Positions 13,919 to 26,588 of a stretch of DNA of 32,675 nucleotides are shown in pieces. Numbering within the stretch: the stretch's first letter is position 1; every line of letters begins with the position of its first letter. Source of the DNA: a virus (taxonomy: Duplodnaviria > Heunggongvirae > Uroviricota > Caudoviricetes); the IMG/VR virus record IMGVR_UViG_2663763159_000003, positions 1-32,675 of that record. The stretch is one strand, 5' to 3'. A program made the position numbers and the translations under genes. A model generated the notes under the pieces. That model did no database searches, was not told the origin of the DNA, and saw only the letters and a program-made list of their open reading frames with translations.

Positions 13919-14458
13919 ATGGATATTAAGGATAAAATCAATACCATTTTGTTATGTGACATTGCCATCCACCTAGGTATCGAAACTGATATTGATCCAC
14001 AGCTTGTAAAATATGCTGTGTCATCTGGTAATGATTGGGTTATGAAGGCCGAATATTCACATTTGGATGTTGATGAACCAAGTAAAGAAGATCGTGATTT
14101 TGTTACTGCTGTCTTGAATATGTACCGCGGACTTTCCAATGCTTTCAGGAAACTTAGTGATGACGAGCAAAAAGAATTAGTCCGTGACCATCATCTAAAA
14201 ATACATGATGGGGAAATTCAGCTCCCAGGTTTCGACGGTCATAATGAATGCGATTACTTCAGTATCATTGAGGCATATCAGAAAATTGATCGCTTCCCCG
14301 AACAGAAACAGCCCATTGCCAATACTCATTCACGTACAGAACATCTCTATAACGCAATGCTTGATGAGTTTAAGAAAATTGACGCTGTAAATCGAAGCTG
14401 GGATTTATCGAAGGAAGAACTGGCATCCATTCTTTCCACAGCTCCACGCAGTTTCTAA
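13919..14458 (+). CDS. YfbU-family (UPF0304) protein, opposite-strand moron in the bor slot
   Basis: 179 aa; motif pattern (VLNMYRGL, GFDGHNE.DYF, LSKEEL) aligns by recall with E. coli YfbU; GAGGG RBS; AT-rich. Confidence 0.6.
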   Translation: MDIKDKINTILLCDIAIHLGIETDIDPQLVKYAVSSGNDWVMKAEYSHLDVDEPSKEDRDFVTAVLNMYRGLSNAFRKLSDDEQKELVRDHHLKIHDGEIQLPGFDGHNECDYFSIIEAYQKIDRFPEQKQPIANTHSRTEHLYNAMLDEFKKIDAVNRSWDLSKEELASILSTAPRSF

Positions 14459-14463
14459 GTGCT

Positions 14464-14730
14464 TTAGGCGGGTTTCCAACCCGCCTTATTATGCTCGTAT
14501 ATAGAGAAGGAAGCACCCAAATTAACCAGCGCGGATTTCTTTTCCTCAATACGGCTGTTAAGTTCAGCAACTGCATGCGGGCGTATGGCCTCAAGAAAAG
14601 CACTATATTGATAGGCAGACTGGATTGTCACACCAAGCCCTGCACCACTTTCCAGTATACCTTTCTGTCGCTGTAGCTCTTTCATCTCGTTATAGATGTA
14701 ATGTGCGTTACTTAGGTTTTCTACGTTCAC
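14464..14730 (-). CDS. Hypothetical 88-aa protein convergent with the YfbU-family gene
   Basis: ORF only; no recognised motif; could be non-coding. Confidence 0.3.
   Translation of the reverse strand: MNVENLSNAHYIYNEMKELQRQKGILESGAGLGVTIQSAYQYSAFLEAIRPHAVAELNSRIEEKKSALVNLGASFSIYEHNKAGWKPA
14469..14493 (+). terminator. Hairpin terminator downstream of the YfbU-family gene
   Basis: ggcgggtttccaacccgcc followed by ttatta; perfect 6-bp stem. Confidence 0.4.
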
Positions 14731-15946: not shown

Positions 15947-16297
15947 TTAAGGTTGTGATTCCGGAGGAGTCTTCAGAGAACCAGTAATTCTTCCTGGTAG
16001 CTTTCCTTTGTAGGTTATCCACACATTCTGCGCCTCTAAAATTACGGGGCGCTTTTCCGGCGACTGCTCATCCCCTTCACATAACCCGGCAGCAACATCC
16101 AGGAAGACCTGTCTGATGCTCCTTCTGGCTGCTGCCTCATAAAACTCCAGCGCGGCACCTTCAACACGGTCCAGCGAGATGTCCAGGTCAAAAATTTCGC
16201 CGTCAAAGCGTTTTTTGTCCCGTAACGCTAAAGTTACCGTAACTTTATTCTCAAAATTGCGGATCCCTTTCACAATCAGTTCATAGTTTTGAGTCAT
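15947..16297 (-). CDS. Hypothetical 116-aa protein inserted between holin and endolysin
   Basis: ORF with ATG start 5 nt downstream of holin stop; no TM segment; no recognised motif. Confidence 0.65.
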   Translation of the reverse strand: MTQNYELIVKGIRNFENKVTVTLALRDKKRFDGEIFDLDISLDRVEGAALEFYEAAARRSIRQVFLDVAAGLCEGDEQSPEKRPVILEAQNVWITYKGKLPGRITGSLKTPPESQP

Positions 16298-16301
16298 TGA
16301 A

Positions 16302-16517
16302 TTACTCTCCCCGTGCAGCCTTACGCTTGTCTTCTCTGATTTTGAAGTACAGATTTGTCAGATAAGTCAGGAAGCCCAGAACCAGACTCCCCAGTACACC
16401 AATCGCAGCCCACTGTGACGGACTGACCTGATCCAACCACTGCAAAAACCAGTATCCCGCACTACCAGCGGATGTTCCGTAGGCAATGCCAGTTGAGATT
16501 TTGTCCATTGATTTCAT
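16302..16517 (-). CDS. S: Pinholin, phage 21 S-type
   Basis: 71 aa, matches phage 21 S as recalled ([23 protein letters not shown]...), two TM segments, dual-start MKSM. Confidence 0.9.
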
Positions 16518-16635
16518 AGCAACGCCTCCGCCAGTAACGGATTGCGTAGTTCTTATATTGGGAAGGGAGAAAAAGAAGACCGCAGCATAACTATCACTGA
16601 TGAATTCAGGACATCCAGTGGCTACGGCTCAGTTA

Positions 16636-16711
16636 TGGTGCTGGTTAACGGACTTGAACCGCTACCCATTCGCTTACAAGGCGACCGCTCTACCATTGGA
16701 GCTAAACCAGC
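16636..16711 (-). tRNA. tRNA-Thr(UGU)-like, 76 nt with encoded CCA
   Basis: Hand-folded cloverleaf: acceptor GCUGGUU/AACCAGC, D-arm GCUC-CAAUGGUA-GAGC, anticodon loop CUUGUAA, T-arm AGCGG-UUCAAGU-CCGUU. Confidence 0.6.
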
Positions 16712-16716
16712 ATATT

Positions 16717-16791
16717 TGGCGGGACAGCGTGGACTCGAACCACGATAAGAAGGTTAACAGCCTTCCGTAATGACCTTTATACGACTGACCC
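16717..16791 (-). tRNA. tRNA-Asn(GUU)-like, 75 nt, deviant D-arm (possibly degenerate)
   Basis: Anticodon arm GAAGG-CUGUUAA-CCUUC, T-arm CGUGG-UUCGAGU-CCACG, acceptor with one U-U mismatch, CCA encoded. Confidence 0.45.
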
Positions 16792-16793
16792 AA

Positions 16794-16882
16794 ATAAAAA
16801 AAGCCACCGTTGCAACTTAAGAGTCACTAACGGCAGCTTATGCGAATAGTGTTGCTCATTTGCTCAATGATGTCAACACGTT
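16794..16882 (-). promoter_or_regulatory. Late promoter / qut / tR'-like region downstream of Q
   Basis: Position only; imperfect hairpin plus 7-U run (plus 16796..16836); no promoter hexamers confidently assigned. Confidence 0.3.
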
Positions 16883-17428
16883 CTATGCTACATGTTTAAT
16901 TTTCTCTACACGTTTCCGGTTTTTAAACGCACTATCCAGAACCGGGTAAATCATAAACAACGAGGCATTGAGGATTTCGTCAACTTCCCGTCGACAGGTT
17001 GCGAGCGATGGTTTTTGAATGCGCCCGCCGCCCCGGCATAACATCTTGCGAGGTCTTGCGACGCGATGATAGTAAGATGCAATGGCGTGCTTGGAAGAGC
17101 CGTGGGCGTAGTAGCTGAGGAGGATGCCAAAGGCTTTCTTGTCAATGTACATGACGGAATCGACGACCTGAGAAATCAACATTCCATCATCATCATTACA
17201 CATTGGCCTTGTCATAACTCTTCCCGGCTCTACGCTCTCCATGAACTTAGCTATTACGCTGCTCATGCGCTTTTCCAGACGACCTGAATAAACCCATGCG
17301 CCCCACAGTTCAAGCCAGCCATTCAGCCACTCGTGCTGTTCTTTGGTGAGGTTTAGTTCTCTTATGCCCATGCGCCTTCTCCCTTGTGATCTGGAATGGT
17401 TTTTACTGAGAACGTCATGCGGCCTCAC
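16883..17428 (-). CDS. Late-gene antiterminator Q (non-λ Q family)
   Basis: 181 aa; WGAW...C.DDD...YY pattern shared with E. coli prophage Q homologues as recalled; position between ninG and lysis genes. Confidence 0.75.
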
Positions 17429-22368: not shown

Positions 22369-22689
22369 ATGGAACCGGTCAAAATTAAACCATCTGTGGA
22401 TTATATTGAAACCTATGCGGACTTCGCTAGTTTTGCTCCACTACCGGGAGCGGAAAAAAATCTCATTTGTATACATTTTATCGCAAACAAGTCAATACCT
22501 GCGGTACTATCCCAAAATGATATACCAGATCAACCAGGTAGAGCGAATATGCAGATAGGCTCTGTAAATGAACTCAATCAGCAATGCACTGTGATAATGC
22601 CAATGGCACAACTAAAGGCTCTTCAAGAGAATATAGTTCTTCTTTTCGAACAATTAGAGGCACAAAACTCTAATGGAGCGAAGTCGTAA
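22369..22689 (+). CDS. Hypothetical soluble protein, first gene of the rex-slot cassette
   Basis: Start taken at MEPVK with GAGAGG RBS; stop overlaps next start (TAATG). Confidence 0.6.
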   Translation: MEPVKIKPSVDYIETYADFASFAPLPGAEKNLICIHFIANKSIPAVLSQNDIPDQPGRANMQIGSVNELNQQCTVIMPMAQLKALQENIVLLFEQLEAQNSNGAKS

Positions 22690-23372
22690 TGCAACAACCG
22701 GAAGAAGTAGGTGATTTAACTATTACTTACAAAACATCAAGTATTGTTAAACCACTGCAAGTTTCCCTGAATAACGTTAATACTCGCGATTTCATGATGT
22801 TCATGGAAACAGCAAAAGGTAATCTGTTTTCTACGCCTATTTCCTCTTATTCACCAAAAAACATGGTGGATGATGCGACCAATTCCCAGCTAACTGCTAC
22901 AATCGTAGATAAAGGAGGGGTTGCCGATTGTAAAGGACAATCTAATGTTATCCCACCGTACGAGGAAACTCCTATACAGGGAACCGCAATGTCCGATTTG
23001 AGCAGAAACGAAATACAGGCACTTCTGAAGGCAAATAAAGCTGAAGTGGATGCAGTGGCCTCAAAAATGCAGGCTGATATGGCCAAATGGCGTGAACTAA
23101 TGGCTTCAGATATAAAGGAGATGAAGCATTTAGTTGTTACTCAGCACGAACAAATCAACAGTCGTCTGGACATACAATCGAGTAGAATTGAGAGTGCCCT
23201 TGACTCCCAATCAAAAAAGATCGATGCAGCTCTTTCTGTTCAAGAGGCAAAGTTAGAAGGTAAGCTTAGTGATGTTAAGCTTGATATAATCAAATGGGCC
23301 CTTGGCTTGCCAGCATTAGCATTTACTGTATATAAAATCTACGGATTGCTCTCTGGAGTCTCAACCCCCTAA
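22689..23372 (+). CDS. Hypothetical tail-anchored coiled-coil membrane protein, second gene of the rex-slot cassette
   Basis: 227 aa; Gln/Ser/Lys-rich heptad-like region residues ~105-200; C-terminal hydrophobic helix IIKWALGLPALAFTVYKIYGLLSGV. Confidence 0.7.
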   Translation: MQQPEEVGDLTITYKTSSIVKPLQVSLNNVNTRDFMMFMETAKGNLFSTPISSYSPKNMVDDATNSQLTATIVDKGGVADCKGQSNVIPPYEETPIQGTAMSDLSRNEIQALLKANKAEVDAVASKMQADMAKWRELMASDIKEMKHLVVTQHEQINSRLDIQSSRIESALDSQSKKIDAALSVQEAKLEGKLSDVKLDIIKWALGLPALAFTVYKIYGLLSGVSTP

Positions 23373-24153: not shown

Positions 24154-24240
24154 ATGGAAGAAGAATTTGAAGAGTTCGAAGAGCATCCTCAGGATGTGAT
24201 GGAACAATACCAGGACTATCCGTATGACTGCGACTATTGA
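24154..24240 (+). CDS. Small acidic 28-aa ORF (λ orf28-like position)
   Basis: ATG with GAGGTGAG RBS; overlaps ral start; too short to judge. Confidence 0.3.
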   Translation: MEEEFEEFEEHPQDVMEQYQDYPYDCDY

Positions 24241-24424
24241 TAAGAATCAATGGTGTGGACAATTCAAGCGATGCAATGGATGCAAGCTGCAATCGGAATG
24301 CATGGTTAAGCCTGAAGAAATGTTTCCTGTAATGGAAGATGGGAAATATGTCGATAAATGGGCAATACGAACGACGGCAATGATTGCCAGAGAACTTGGT
24401 AAACAGAACAACAAAGCTGCCTGA
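24224..24424 (+). CDS. ral: Restriction alleviation protein Ral
   Basis: 66 aa, matches λ Ral as recalled. Confidence 0.8.
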   Translation: MTATIDKNQWCGQFKRCNGCKLQSECMVKPEEMFPVMEDGKYVDKWAIRTTAMIARELGKQNNKAA

Positions 24425-24902: not shown

Positions 24903-25214
24903 ATGATGATTCTGACTCTGAATGATAAGCGTGAAATATCGCAAATAATCGCAAGTTTTACTGATGAAGATTACGAGCGAATCAACAGTGAAGTTGATCG
25001 CCTCTGCAAACGTTGCGACCCAATAAGCGAAATGCTTCGCTCATATAAACCAGATGAACACACTAAGGACGCTATCGACTGGCTGGAAGATGATGACTGT
25101 AACTATCAGGAAAAAGCCGCTGAATGGTTCTGGGATGCAATAACCGAAAGAGTTAAGGCTGAATATGCCTTCGCAATATTTAAACGCAGACACATTTTTG
25201 GAGAAGCAGCATGA
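24903..25214 (+). CDS. Hypothetical acidic 103-aa protein upstream of recT
   Basis: ORF with AGGAG RBS; stop overlaps recT start; a 34-aa ORF at 24819..24923 partly overlaps its 5' end. Confidence 0.55.
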   Translation: MMILTLNDKREISQIIASFTDEDYERINSEVDRLCKRCDPISEMLRSYKPDEHTKDAIDWLEDDDCNYQEKAAEWFWDAITERVKAEYAFAIFKRRHIFGEAA

Positions 25215-26122
25215 GCAATATCGTTGAATTCGTTAAACAGCAGGAGCAGTTATTCTGCGGAGCATTGACTGAACAGACGGTGACATGGGCTAAGGAAAGC
25301 CAGTTTGCAATTCAGTATTTCCAGAAAAACGATTACCTGGCTAAAACAGCACTGGCAAATCCAACCAGCGCACAGAACGCCATCATCAATGTTGCGGCGA
25401 TCGGCATCACCTTAAACCCTGCAAGCAAACTGGCTTATCTGGTTCCGCGCGATGGCATGGTTTGCCTTGATATCAGCTATATGGGATTGCTCCATATTGC
25501 AATGGAGTCTGGTGTTATCTCATGGGGTCAGGCAAAACTTGTTCATGCTAACGATACCTATGAGTCAAACGGGCTTGATAAAGCACCAACCCATAAATAC
25601 AACGCCTTCGGTGATCGTGGTGATATCGTTGGCGTTTACTGCACAGTTAAGACGCCGGCAGGTGATTATCTAACGGAAGAGATGAGTCTGGCTGAAATTG
25701 AGGCTGTAAGGAAAACAAGCAAGGCAGCATTCAGCGATAAAGGACCATGGGTAAATCACTGGAATGAGATGGCGCGAAAGACGGTCGTAAAGCGTGCAAG
25801 CAAGTATTGGCCTAAGGCATCACGTCTTGATAGCGCTATTCACGTACTAAACGAAGAAGAAGGTGTATGGACTGAACCAGTTATGCCGCACAAATCAGAG
25901 GAAGATATCCGCGAAGATGAACGGAAACGCCAGCAGGAAATAACGGATAAAGCACAACTTCTTTGTGATGAAATGGCTCAGGCAGAAAACATGGATGATT
26001 TGAAGCGATATTTTGCAGAAGCATATCGCCTGACATCTGGAATGAAATTGCAGCAGAACGTACAAGCCATTTACGCAGAATGCAAAGCGAAACTGGAGGT
26101 TGCCAGTGAGCAAACTGTATGA
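25211..26122 (+). CDS. recT: RecT-family single-strand annealing recombinase
   Basis: 303 aa; GPWVNHWNEMARKTVVKRASKYWP resembles the RecT signature GPWVTHWEEMAKKTAIRR. Confidence 0.85.
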   Translation: MSNIVEFVKQQEQLFCGALTEQTVTWAKESQFAIQYFQKNDYLAKTALANPTSAQNAIINVAAIGITLNPASKLAYLVPRDGMVCLDISYMGLLHIAMESGVISWGQAKLVHANDTYESNGLDKAPTHKYNAFGDRGDIVGVYCTVKTPAGDYLTEEMSLAEIEAVRKTSKAAFSDKGPWVNHWNEMARKTVVKRASKYWPKASRLDSAIHVLNEEEGVWTEPVMPHKSEEDIREDERKRQQEITDKAQLLCDEMAQAENMDDLKRYFAEAYRLTSGMKLQQNVQAIYAECKAKLEVASEQTV

Positions 26123-26588
26123 AATTGCCAATGAATACGCAAAATTGATGGATTCAGATTTAGAACCAGAGATGATTGCTGACACAATAGAAGGCATGGA
26201 AGGAGAATTTACCGATAAAATAGAGCAACTTCTTTCCGTCATTAAAAATGAATCTGGTTATGCTGAACGCCTCAAGGAAGAGGCAAAGTCACTGAATGAG
26301 CGAGCCGCAGTAATTCAAAATAAGATTGAGAGCATCAAATCATATATAGCGTCATCGCTTGAAATGGTTGGCAAGAAAAAGATTCGAGCAGGTATTCACC
26401 AGGTAACAATCCGCAAACCGTCAGAAACTGTAGAAATCATCGACTCAAGCGCCCTTCCTCCTGAATACGTTGAGTTTGAAACGACAATTAAAGCCGACAA
26501 ACTGGCAATCAAACACCAACTAAAAGCAGGAATAAATATCCCCGGCGCTCAACTCAAAGTTGGGAAACCTTCACTTCTTATCAAATAA
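26100..26588 (+). CDS. Siphovirus Gp157-like protein
   Basis: 162 aa; coiled-coil N-terminal half; non-ATG start (TTG 26100 or GTG 26106) overlapping recT end. Confidence 0.55.
   Translation: MPVSKLYEIANEYAKLMDSDLEPEMIADTIEGMEGEFTDKIEQLLSVIKNESGYAERLKEEAKSLNERAAVIQNKIESIKSYIASSLEMVGKKKIRAGIHQVTIRKPSETVEIIDSSALPPEYVEFETTIKADKLAIKHQLKAGINIPGAQLKVGKPSLLIK

Follow-up and report, generated by a model that had tools for sequence, protein, structure and literature searches.

Tandem tRNA genes, Asn(GUU) and Thr(UGU), in the late leader of a phage 21/SfI-like lambdoid prophage: probable Q-dependent replacement tRNAs resisting OLD-family nucleases

Two tRNA Genes between Q and the Holin

The DNA analysed here (hereafter the window) is the 32,675-nt IMG/VR virus record IMGVR_UViG_2663763159_000003, in which two adjacent transfer RNA (tRNA) genes, one for tRNA-Asn(GUU) and one for tRNA-Thr(UGU), lie on the minus strand between an antiterminator gene of the Q family and a holin gene. 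The pair stands at the 5' end of a Q-dependent late operon in a lambdoid prophage resembling phages 21 and SfI, and the two genes probably supply Q-dependent replacement tRNAs that resist nucleases of the OLD family, with supply of a decoder for ACA codons as a compatible second benefit. The genes and the spacer between them are located as follows:

16717..16791 (-): tRNA-Asn(GUU), 75 nt, CCA encoded, G73 discriminator, U4·U69 and U13·U22 (ARAGORN)
16712..16716 (-): spacer between tRNA-Asn and tRNA-Thr, 5 nt, AAUAU (read from the sequence)
16636..16711 (-): tRNA-Thr(UGU), 76 nt, CCA encoded, G27·A43 (ARAGORN)

On the minus strand tRNA-Asn is transcribed first and tRNA-Thr second. A first-pass annotation, folded by hand from the letters alone, had proposed two tandem minus-strand tRNA genes at these positions, 5 nt apart and each with an encoded CCA, and ARAGORN and Rfam both agree with it; the anticodons it had read, UGU (Thr) and GUU (Asn), are those of the ARAGORN calls. 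The whole window was scanned with ARAGORN, which called these two genes and no others. Against Rfam family RF00005, whose gathering score is 29, tRNA-Thr scored 61.2 bits (E = 4e-11) and tRNA-Asn 55.3 bits (E = 2e-9), both aligning to model positions 1-71 of 71, that is, as full-length cloverleaves. Scores and E-values so far past the gathering score exclude a chance match, and the hand fold is thus consistent with the covariance model. No further Rfam family rose above threshold anywhere in the window, and a permissive Rfam scan of 16250..17000 returned no other known RNA family in the leader or in the hairpin downstream of the pair.

Structure and Conservation of the tRNA Pair

Both tRNAs possess U8, G18G19, U33, T54-Psi55-C56, and A58. 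The exception to the standard set is position 14 of tRNA-Thr, which is C, not A, and is kept across most of the Thr family; C14 is unusual, position 14 being almost universally A. The D-loop of this tRNA (16690-16697, -) reads C14 A15 A16 U17, compared with A14 G15 U16 A17 in the host counterpart, and the same D-arm was seen in otherwise unrelated phage tRNA-Thr(UGU) genes of IMG/VR. tRNA-Asn has a single acceptor mismatch, U4·U69, and a D-stem of 3 bp with the non-pair U13·U22 at its base, matching the one acceptor mismatch and weak D-stem described for it initially; its anticodon stem is a full 5 bp. In tRNA-Thr, the mismatch G27·A43 at the top of the anticodon stem leaves a stem of 4 bp. 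Folded alone by minimum free energy (MFE), tRNA-Thr gives no cloverleaf (z = -1.5). Single unmodified tRNA sequences often fail to fold as cloverleaves by this approach, and the structural call was based on the covariance model and on covariation, not on the single-sequence MFE fold.

The identity set of the E. coli threonyl-tRNA synthetase (ThrRS) comprises G1-C72, C2-G71, G35, and U36, and that of the asparaginyl-tRNA synthetase (AsnRS) comprises G34, U35, U36, and G73. The ThrRS identity nucleotides are present in tRNA-Thr as G1-C72, C2-G71, and the anticodon UGU, and tRNA-Asn carries the anticodon GUU and a discriminator G before CCA, in a column (G73) that is nearly invariant among alleles. 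Both tRNAs retain the anticodon, A37, and the acceptor/discriminator identity elements of their host counterparts, and judging from these nucleotides both should be charged, with Asn and Thr respectively.

Alleles were gathered from IMG/VR with two unusual D-arm sequences as probes, and the tRNAs were re-called by ARAGORN, giving 22 distinct Thr and 24 distinct Asn alleles, each at least 80% identical to the window; this probe-based collection makes the D-arm invariant by construction. Five pairs of the Thr cloverleaf and six of the Asn cloverleaf were changed on both sides, the covariation score was reached in 0 of 500 shuffles in each case, and in both families control registers slid by 1-3 columns scored far lower. 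In Thr, pairs 3:70, 4:69, 5:68, and 6:67 covary, and 1:72 (G-C) is kept in 21/22 alleles and 2:71 (C-G) in 22/22, which fits the constraints of ThrRS identity. In Asn, pairs 5:68, 6:67, 7:66, 28:42, and 29:41 covary, with GUU and G73 retained. Thr 27·43 is unpaired in all 22 alleles and Asn 4·69 is U·U in 22 of the 24, so that G27·A43 and U4·U69, being conserved across alleles, are selected features and not signs of decay; Asn 13·22 is also invariant, but it lies inside the search probe and is uninformative.

tRNA-Asn is 100% identical in phages 21, Sf6, and ST64T. The tRNA-Thr of the window is the tRNAThr21 of phage 21 with the change A26G, which falls outside the anticodon stem, and the same allele is found in SfI; in IMG/VR the G26 allele is the second commonest (13 loci), after the A26 allele of phage 21 (65 loci). 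We consider it virtually certain that both are real, functional tRNA genes. tRNA-Asn had initially been considered either degenerate or phage-specialised; the first possibility falls, and the second is the better of the two, given the conserved mismatches, the compensatory changes, and the identity of the sequence across phages.

A decayed Thr slot was seen in ST64T (1285-1361 of the compared stretch) and in phage L, where a 4-nt deletion is accompanied by further changes in the anticodon arm and ARAGORN makes no call; the phage L paper reports this second slot as a Leu(UAA) tRNA. Seven IMG/VR loci were scored as Asn-Gly(UCC) arrays, and the two that were inspected (L026 and L062) hold a chimera in the second slot (L026 ~1215-1290), with a 5' part matching the phage tRNA-Thr and an anticodon arm and 3' half resembling host thrU. 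Positions 39-43 of the chimera read UCAUC, which gives an anticodon stem of 3 bp and turns CAG into CAU; it is not called by ARAGORN, and tRNA-Gly(UCC) comes after it.

Late Promoter, Terminator, and Downstream Hairpin

The coordinates of the leader were transferred from the curated annotation of phage 21 (OL657228; window position = L001 position + 13898). The features surrounding the pair, in order of transcription, are:

16883..17371 (-): late antiterminator gene of the Q21 type (RefSeq annotation of the matching prophage, phage 21 annotation, and list of open reading frames (ORFs))
16841..16876 (-): late promoter pR' of the phage 21 type (100% identity to phage 21, OL657228 annotation)
16871-16876 (-): -35 element of pR', TTGACA (OL657228 annotation transfer)
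16853-16868 (-): Q-binding element ATTGAGCA/AATGAGCA (OL657228 annotation transfer)
16848-16853 (-): -10 element of pR' (OL657228 annotation transfer)
16841 (-): start site of pR' (OL657228 annotation transfer)
16834-16840 (-): sigma-dependent pause element (OL657228 annotation transfer)
16792..16839 (-): intrinsic terminator of the late leader, tR' (identical to the phage 21 terminator annotated (PMID 1704887) in OL657228)
16560..16635 (-): conserved imperfect hairpin followed by a U-rich tract, directly 3' of tRNA-Thr (fold of -19.8 kcal/mol, z = -2.5)
16302..16517 (-): S21-type class II holin/antiholin (pinholin) gene, the first protein gene downstream of the tRNAs (ORF list, phage 21 and prophage annotation)

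The location between Q and the holin given in the first-pass annotation is therefore correct, with a Q21-type gene upstream and an S21-type class II holin downstream. Window and phage 21 share every base from a point upstream of the promoter to the end of tRNA-Asn. Folding of the leader (50 nt) gives a 17-bp hairpin with a bulge and, after it, U7AUUU (-20.2 kcal/mol, z = -6.1, 0/200 shuffles as stable), and the U-tract of tR' abuts G1 of tRNA-Asn. This adjacency leaves no room for a separate tRNA promoter, so that transcription of the tRNAs must come from pR' via read-through of tR', and dependence of their expression on Q21 is very likely. A simple promoter/terminator pattern scan returned neither pR' nor tR' on the minus strand, but its pattern disallows a bulged hairpin and the result is thus uninformative.

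Where the Asn-Thr pair occurs in IMG/VR (95 loci), homology to the window ends mostly at ~16560-16579 on the downstream side and at ~16800-16859 or the start of Q on the upstream side, boundaries which indicate that the mobile unit consists of terminator, tRNA-Asn, tRNA-Thr, and hairpin, recombined with different Q and holin alleles. Of the 90 loci with a scorable downstream boundary, 85 keep the conserved stretch as far as ~16560-16579 or beyond. Most other alleles of the downstream hairpin fold to -27.7 kcal/mol, compared with -19.8 for the allele of the window, and candidate roles for it are as a processing, stabilising, or weak terminator element. A role as a general second terminator was rejected, as the U-tract is confined to the 21/SfI type and most alleles lack it.

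Transcription data from BTP1 bear on the corresponding region. The BTP1 transcriptome paper, which covers RNA sequencing of the lysogen, places the start of the lytic operon "directly after" the two tRNA genes; as to their expression it names them solely in excluding them from its five listed genes above 100 transcripts per million (TPM>100), which we read as the tRNA genes also being highly represented in lysogen RNA.

Nuclease Targets and Proposed Function

Both anticodons of the pair, UGU and GUU, are those of host tRNAs targeted by the nucleases Old and AriB. P2 Old, the effector of classic P2-lambda interference, is lethal because it cleaves host tRNA-Thr(UGU) in the anticodon stem, at paired CNG motifs (nucleotides 28-30 and 40-42); tRNA-Lys(UUU), Asn(GUU), and Val(UAC) are also cut, more slowly (Govande et al. 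2025). Phage tRNA-Thr(UGU) species rescue cells from P2 Old, and among them tRNAThr21 gave protection from Old and withstood cleavage in vitro at physiological K+, a resistance credited to its shorter anticodon stem and altered pairs including C28U/G42A; the phage 21 tRNA-Thr (A26 allele) also restored ACA decoding in vivo (Govande et al. 2025). AriB of the PARIS system cleaves between nucleotides 40 and 41 (U36AAUC|A41) of host Lys(UUU) and Thr(UGU) and, as a secondary target, of host Asn(GUU); cleavage is abolished by U39A and reduced by A41C and by U16C, position U16 being a reported AriB contact, and the Lys, Thr, and Asn tRNAs of phage T5 together neutralise PARIS (Belukhina et al. 2025). 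For its P22-like phage, the BASEL collection paper contains nothing on tRNAs and Old sensitivity.

The tRNA-Thr of the window has U28, A42, G39, G41, and G27·A43, with UCG/CGA at the CNG positions, and its AriB site reads UAAGCG, compared with UAAUCA in the host. In tRNA-Asn, AAG/CUU replaces the CGG/CCG of host asnT, so that both CNG motifs are lost; it has C39 and U41, and its AriB site reads UAACCU, compared with UAAUCC in the host, with loss of U39. As regards the determinants of Old resistance, tRNA-Thr thus has both altered CNG motifs and a shortened stem, whereas tRNA-Asn has altered CNG motifs but a stem of full length. The position numbering was checked and reproduces the published T5 Lys site, UAAACC; the Thr and Asn tRNAs of T5 likewise lack U39.

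In the mechanism we favour, polymerase starting at pR' (16841) meets tR', and polymerase modified by Q21 would read through it and make the tRNAs; leaky read-through of tR' may also give a low level of the tRNAs in lysogens. Host tRNA-processing enzymes would cut both tRNAs from the late transcript, and these would replace the host isoacceptors destroyed in abortive infection by P2 Old and PARIS AriB, which are OLD-family Toprim nucleases acting on the anticodon stem. An added benefit would be the supply of the rare ACA decoder for the ACA-rich genes of the phage.

Nuclease evasion is rather likely to be the selected function of tRNA-Thr, and for this gene it comes close to a demonstration because phage 21 tRNA-Thr, which differs by A26G only, protected against P2 Old and resisted cleavage. 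For tRNA-Asn the same selected function may apply, with a probability that we place a little below even; it is suggested by the facts that host Asn(GUU) is a secondary target of both nucleases and that the phage tRNA-Asn has lost CNG and U39. By our own rough, post-hoc reckoning, a random choice of two anticodons out of about 40 would place both of them among the three main targets of AriB in 3 of 780 cases. More tentatively, and at well short of even probability, the stretch from tR' through both tRNAs to the hairpin (~16570-16840) might be a mobile cassette, complete in itself, for counter-defence against OLD-family Toprim nucleases, in which tRNA-Asn, as the resistant partner, would remove the toxicity left with tRNA-Thr alone and leaky read-through would make both tRNAs in lysogens.

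Several observations weigh against nuclease evasion. Any unrelated anticodon stem would lose CNG and U39 by default, which makes the motif argument weak when taken alone; Klebsiella-type Asn alleles regain CNG (CAG/CUG), the anticodon stem of tRNA-Asn is a full 5 bp and not shortened, and the Asn and Thr tRNAs of phage P1 retain sensitive motifs. The pair does not supply tRNA-Lys(UUU), the prime target of PARIS, and alone should therefore not defeat that system. Rescue from Old by tRNA-Thr alone is partial (Govande et al. 2025), and for this pair of tRNAs the published rescue and resistance data concern the A26 Thr allele of phage 21 against P2 Old, outside phage infection. As to timing, the tRNAs are expressed late and Old is triggered by early functions; a search of the prophage for lambda Gam and other known triggers of Old or PARIS gave N, Ral, CIII, RecT, and Gp157 but no recognisable lambda Gam, so that the prophage may not set off Old. 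In codon use, early genes are more enriched in ACA than late genes, and Asn codons are only 1.2-fold as frequent as in the host, so that codon supply does not account for tRNA-Asn either.

Expanded Asn-Phe-Thr-Arg(UCU) arrays, some of them also with Gly, were observed in phages of the Klebsiella type, in Klebsiella phage Mulock (L007 1501-1820), in IMG/VR loci L020, L091, and L123, and in others, and these too lie between Q and the holin. The Asn allele of this type shows a compensatory change of A28-U42 to C28-G42, which restores the paired CNG.

Codon Use and Alternative Explanations

The best-surviving alternative, which we nevertheless judge unlikely, is pure codon supplementation (ACA, AAC/AAU) for the burst of late proteins, unrelated to defence. 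A comparison of late-gene and host codon use, to which the first-pass annotation had pointed, gives a divided answer, ACA being raised and Asn codons being just 1.2-fold over the host. Relative to a host reference that is a 50-kb sample of E. coli K-12 genes, ACA occurs 11.5 times per 1000 codons in late and 14.3 times in early prophage genes, compared with 5.4 in the host (Fisher p = 2e-5 and 5e-8), an enrichment of 2.1 to 2.7-fold. In favour of codon supply, the SfI paper gives ACA values of 17.3 vs 7.1 (Sun et al. 2013), tRNA-Thr(UGU) is single-copy and of low abundance in E. coli (Govande et al. 2025), and 24 of the 25 Asn codons of the phage L capsid gene are AAC (phage L paper). However, the enrichment of ACA is higher in early genes, which are translated before the tRNAs of the late operon appear. 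For Asn, codon frequency is scarcely raised and the share of AAC among Asn codons is 43-53% in the phage, below the 63% of the host; E. coli K-12 has four copies of the gene for the tRNA that reads Asn codons, so that supply of this tRNA should not be limiting. Codon supply also leaves the conserved G27·A43 of tRNA-Thr (22/22 alleles) unexplained, which the study of Old explains.

A second alternative, which we regard as very improbable, is that the tRNA folds act as punctuation for RNA processing, being entry sites for RNase P and RNase E that detach the terminator leader and set the 5' end and stability of the lysis mRNA, with decoding incidental. It would fit with the start of tRNA-Asn at the base after the tR' U-tract and with a conserved hairpin that follows tRNA-Thr and moves with the pair. 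Lambda and P22, however, run the same kind of late operon without a tRNA (phage L paper). Other stem pairs covary, but the anticodons, A37, discriminator, and identity pairs are kept, a sign that decoding is under selection, and the phage 21 tRNA-Thr did restore ACA decoding in vivo.

It is scarcely credible that one or both genes are decaying passengers (pseudo-tRNAs) without current function here: ST64T and phage L do show decay of the second slot through the 4-nt anticodon-arm deletion, tRNA-Asn has two non-Watson-Crick pairs, and tRNA-Thr differs by A26G from the phage 21 allele that was tested, but both genes exceed the Rfam threshold by a wide margin, phages whose flanks diverge have the same Asn sequence, the stems are preserved by compensatory changes, the mismatches are conserved and not random damage, and the G26 allele is common and carried by SfI.

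Comparison with Other Phage tRNA Sets

Among the closest relatives of the leader is that of phage 21, whose late region was reportedly the subject of a study by Guo, Kainz & Roberts in 1991. The window and phage 21 (OL657228) share promoter, Q-binding element, terminator, and tRNA-Asn at 100% identity, the order and spacing of the tRNAs, the Q21-type antiterminator upstream, and the S21 pinholin downstream. They differ at position 26 of tRNA-Thr (A in phage 21, G in the window) and at one base of the 5-nt spacer, and the window has a DUF1327 gene and a different lysozyme after the holin. With SfI (JX509734; Sun et al. 2013), 171 bases over both tRNAs are 100% identical, the pair is likewise downstream of Q, and the ACA bias is shared; SfI, however, is serotype-converting, has a myovirus tail, and integrates at thrW (Sun et al. 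2013), whereas the prophage of the window has a lambda-like tail and HK97-like head genes and lies next to ybhC. The P22-like phages Sf6, BTP1, and L/ST64T have the module of terminator, Asn, Thr, and hairpin (97-98% identity) at the start of their late operons, but with other Q-binding elements, Q alleles, and holins, and the Thr slot has decayed in ST64T/L.

The Lys, Thr, and Asn tRNAs of phage T5 (Burman et al. 2024; Belukhina et al. 2025) resemble those of the window in their Thr and Asn anticodons, in the loss of U39, and in the proposed mode of action, that of a cleavage-resistant replacement tRNA. Unlike the prophage, T5 is virulent and expresses 24 tRNAs early, of unrelated sequence and including the key tRNA-Lys that the prophage lacks. 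In phage P1 (trnA-trnT; L008 2425-2578), Asn(GUU) lies directly beside Thr(UGU), and in the N4-like phage VEc25 (L010 1337-1586) both are found within ~100 bases, with an Asn sequence unrelated to the 21 type in each case; ARAGORN calls a possible tRNA-Ser between the two in VEc25. P1 and the N4-like Asn/Thr/Pro sets thus resemble the window in having Asn(GUU) and Thr(UGU) close together in a very small tRNA repertoire, but they lie outside any Q-controlled leader. The Asn tRNA of P1 belongs to another lineage and keeps UAAUCA, its Thr tRNA keeps CUG/CAG, and both are predicted to be sensitive. The pairing of Asn and Thr in P1 and in an N4-like phage with unrelated Asn tRNAs suggests repeated selection for the combination.

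Shiga toxin (Stx) phages of the 933W type carry ileZ-argN-argO between Q and the stx/lysis genes, at an analogous site in the lambdoid late leader, and the usual rationale for that set is the supply of tRNAs for rare codons. As had been pointed out initially, the anticodons of the window differ from that set, being GUU and UGU instead of Ile(CAU), Arg(UCU), and Arg(UCG). The sequences are unrelated, and the site alone is analogous. We know of no evidence of nuclease evasion for ileZ-argN-argO.

Host Prophage, Distribution, and Neighbouring Genes

A prophage of E. coli strain 50579417 matches the window collinearly at 99.991% identity, and in its record both tRNAs are annotated by PGAP. This prophage is lambdoid, with an HK97-type head, a lambda-type tail, a lambda-like replication and nin region, and an integrase adjoining ybhC. 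The 601 bases around the pair are 99.7% identical to SfI and 98.3% to phage 21, and Sf6, BTP1, and many further P22-like phages of Salmonella and Escherichia carry the tRNA portion at 97-98% identity, with tRNA-Thr and tRNA-Asn annotated in nearly all of them. The tRNA pair (156 bases) is present in 347-369 of 5,426 complete E. coli genomes (~6.5%), and PGAP annotates it in hundreds of E. coli genomes. A plasmid search returned few records with the Thr gene, with no features listed under the match. The Asn/Thr pair is already known, being annotated in phages 21, Sf6, SfI, BTP1, and L/ST64T and described in papers; the Sf6 record labels the two tRNAs "similar to phage 21", and the phage L paper discusses the tRNAs at the 5' end of the late operon.

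The early-left operon of the prophage (24224-24424 +; 25211-26588 +) encodes Ral antirestriction, RecT, and Gp157 (PHROG "Mu Gam-like end protection"), and N and CIII are also encoded. On the minus strand, a DUF1327/YdfR-family ORF of 116 aa (15947-16297) lies between the pinholin and lysozyme genes, at a place that is empty of genes in phage 21. An ORF of the YfbU family, read from the other strand (13919-14458, +), and a small ORF with no assigned function (14464-14730, -) are found between the lysis cassette and the HNH/terminase genes, a typical moron position. Two further ORFs of 106 and 227 aa (22369-23372, +) come immediately after the cI-like repressor on its downstream side, where lambda has rexAB; neither matches a Pfam family above threshold and the larger matches phrog_14825 (function not assigned). 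Both are candidates for an accessory or defence locus expressed in the lysogen.

Implications

The pair itself adds nothing new, having been present in RefSeq, in phage genome papers, and in records for years, and its current relevance comes from two 2025 papers (Govande et al.; Belukhina et al.). The interest centres on the role of the Asn tRNA and on whether the cassette lets phages of the 21 type escape P2 interference. If the proposal of a mobile counter-defence cassette were true, the prophage could live alongside P2 prophages or P4 satellites bearing Old or PARIS, and its lytic growth could run to completion in their presence.

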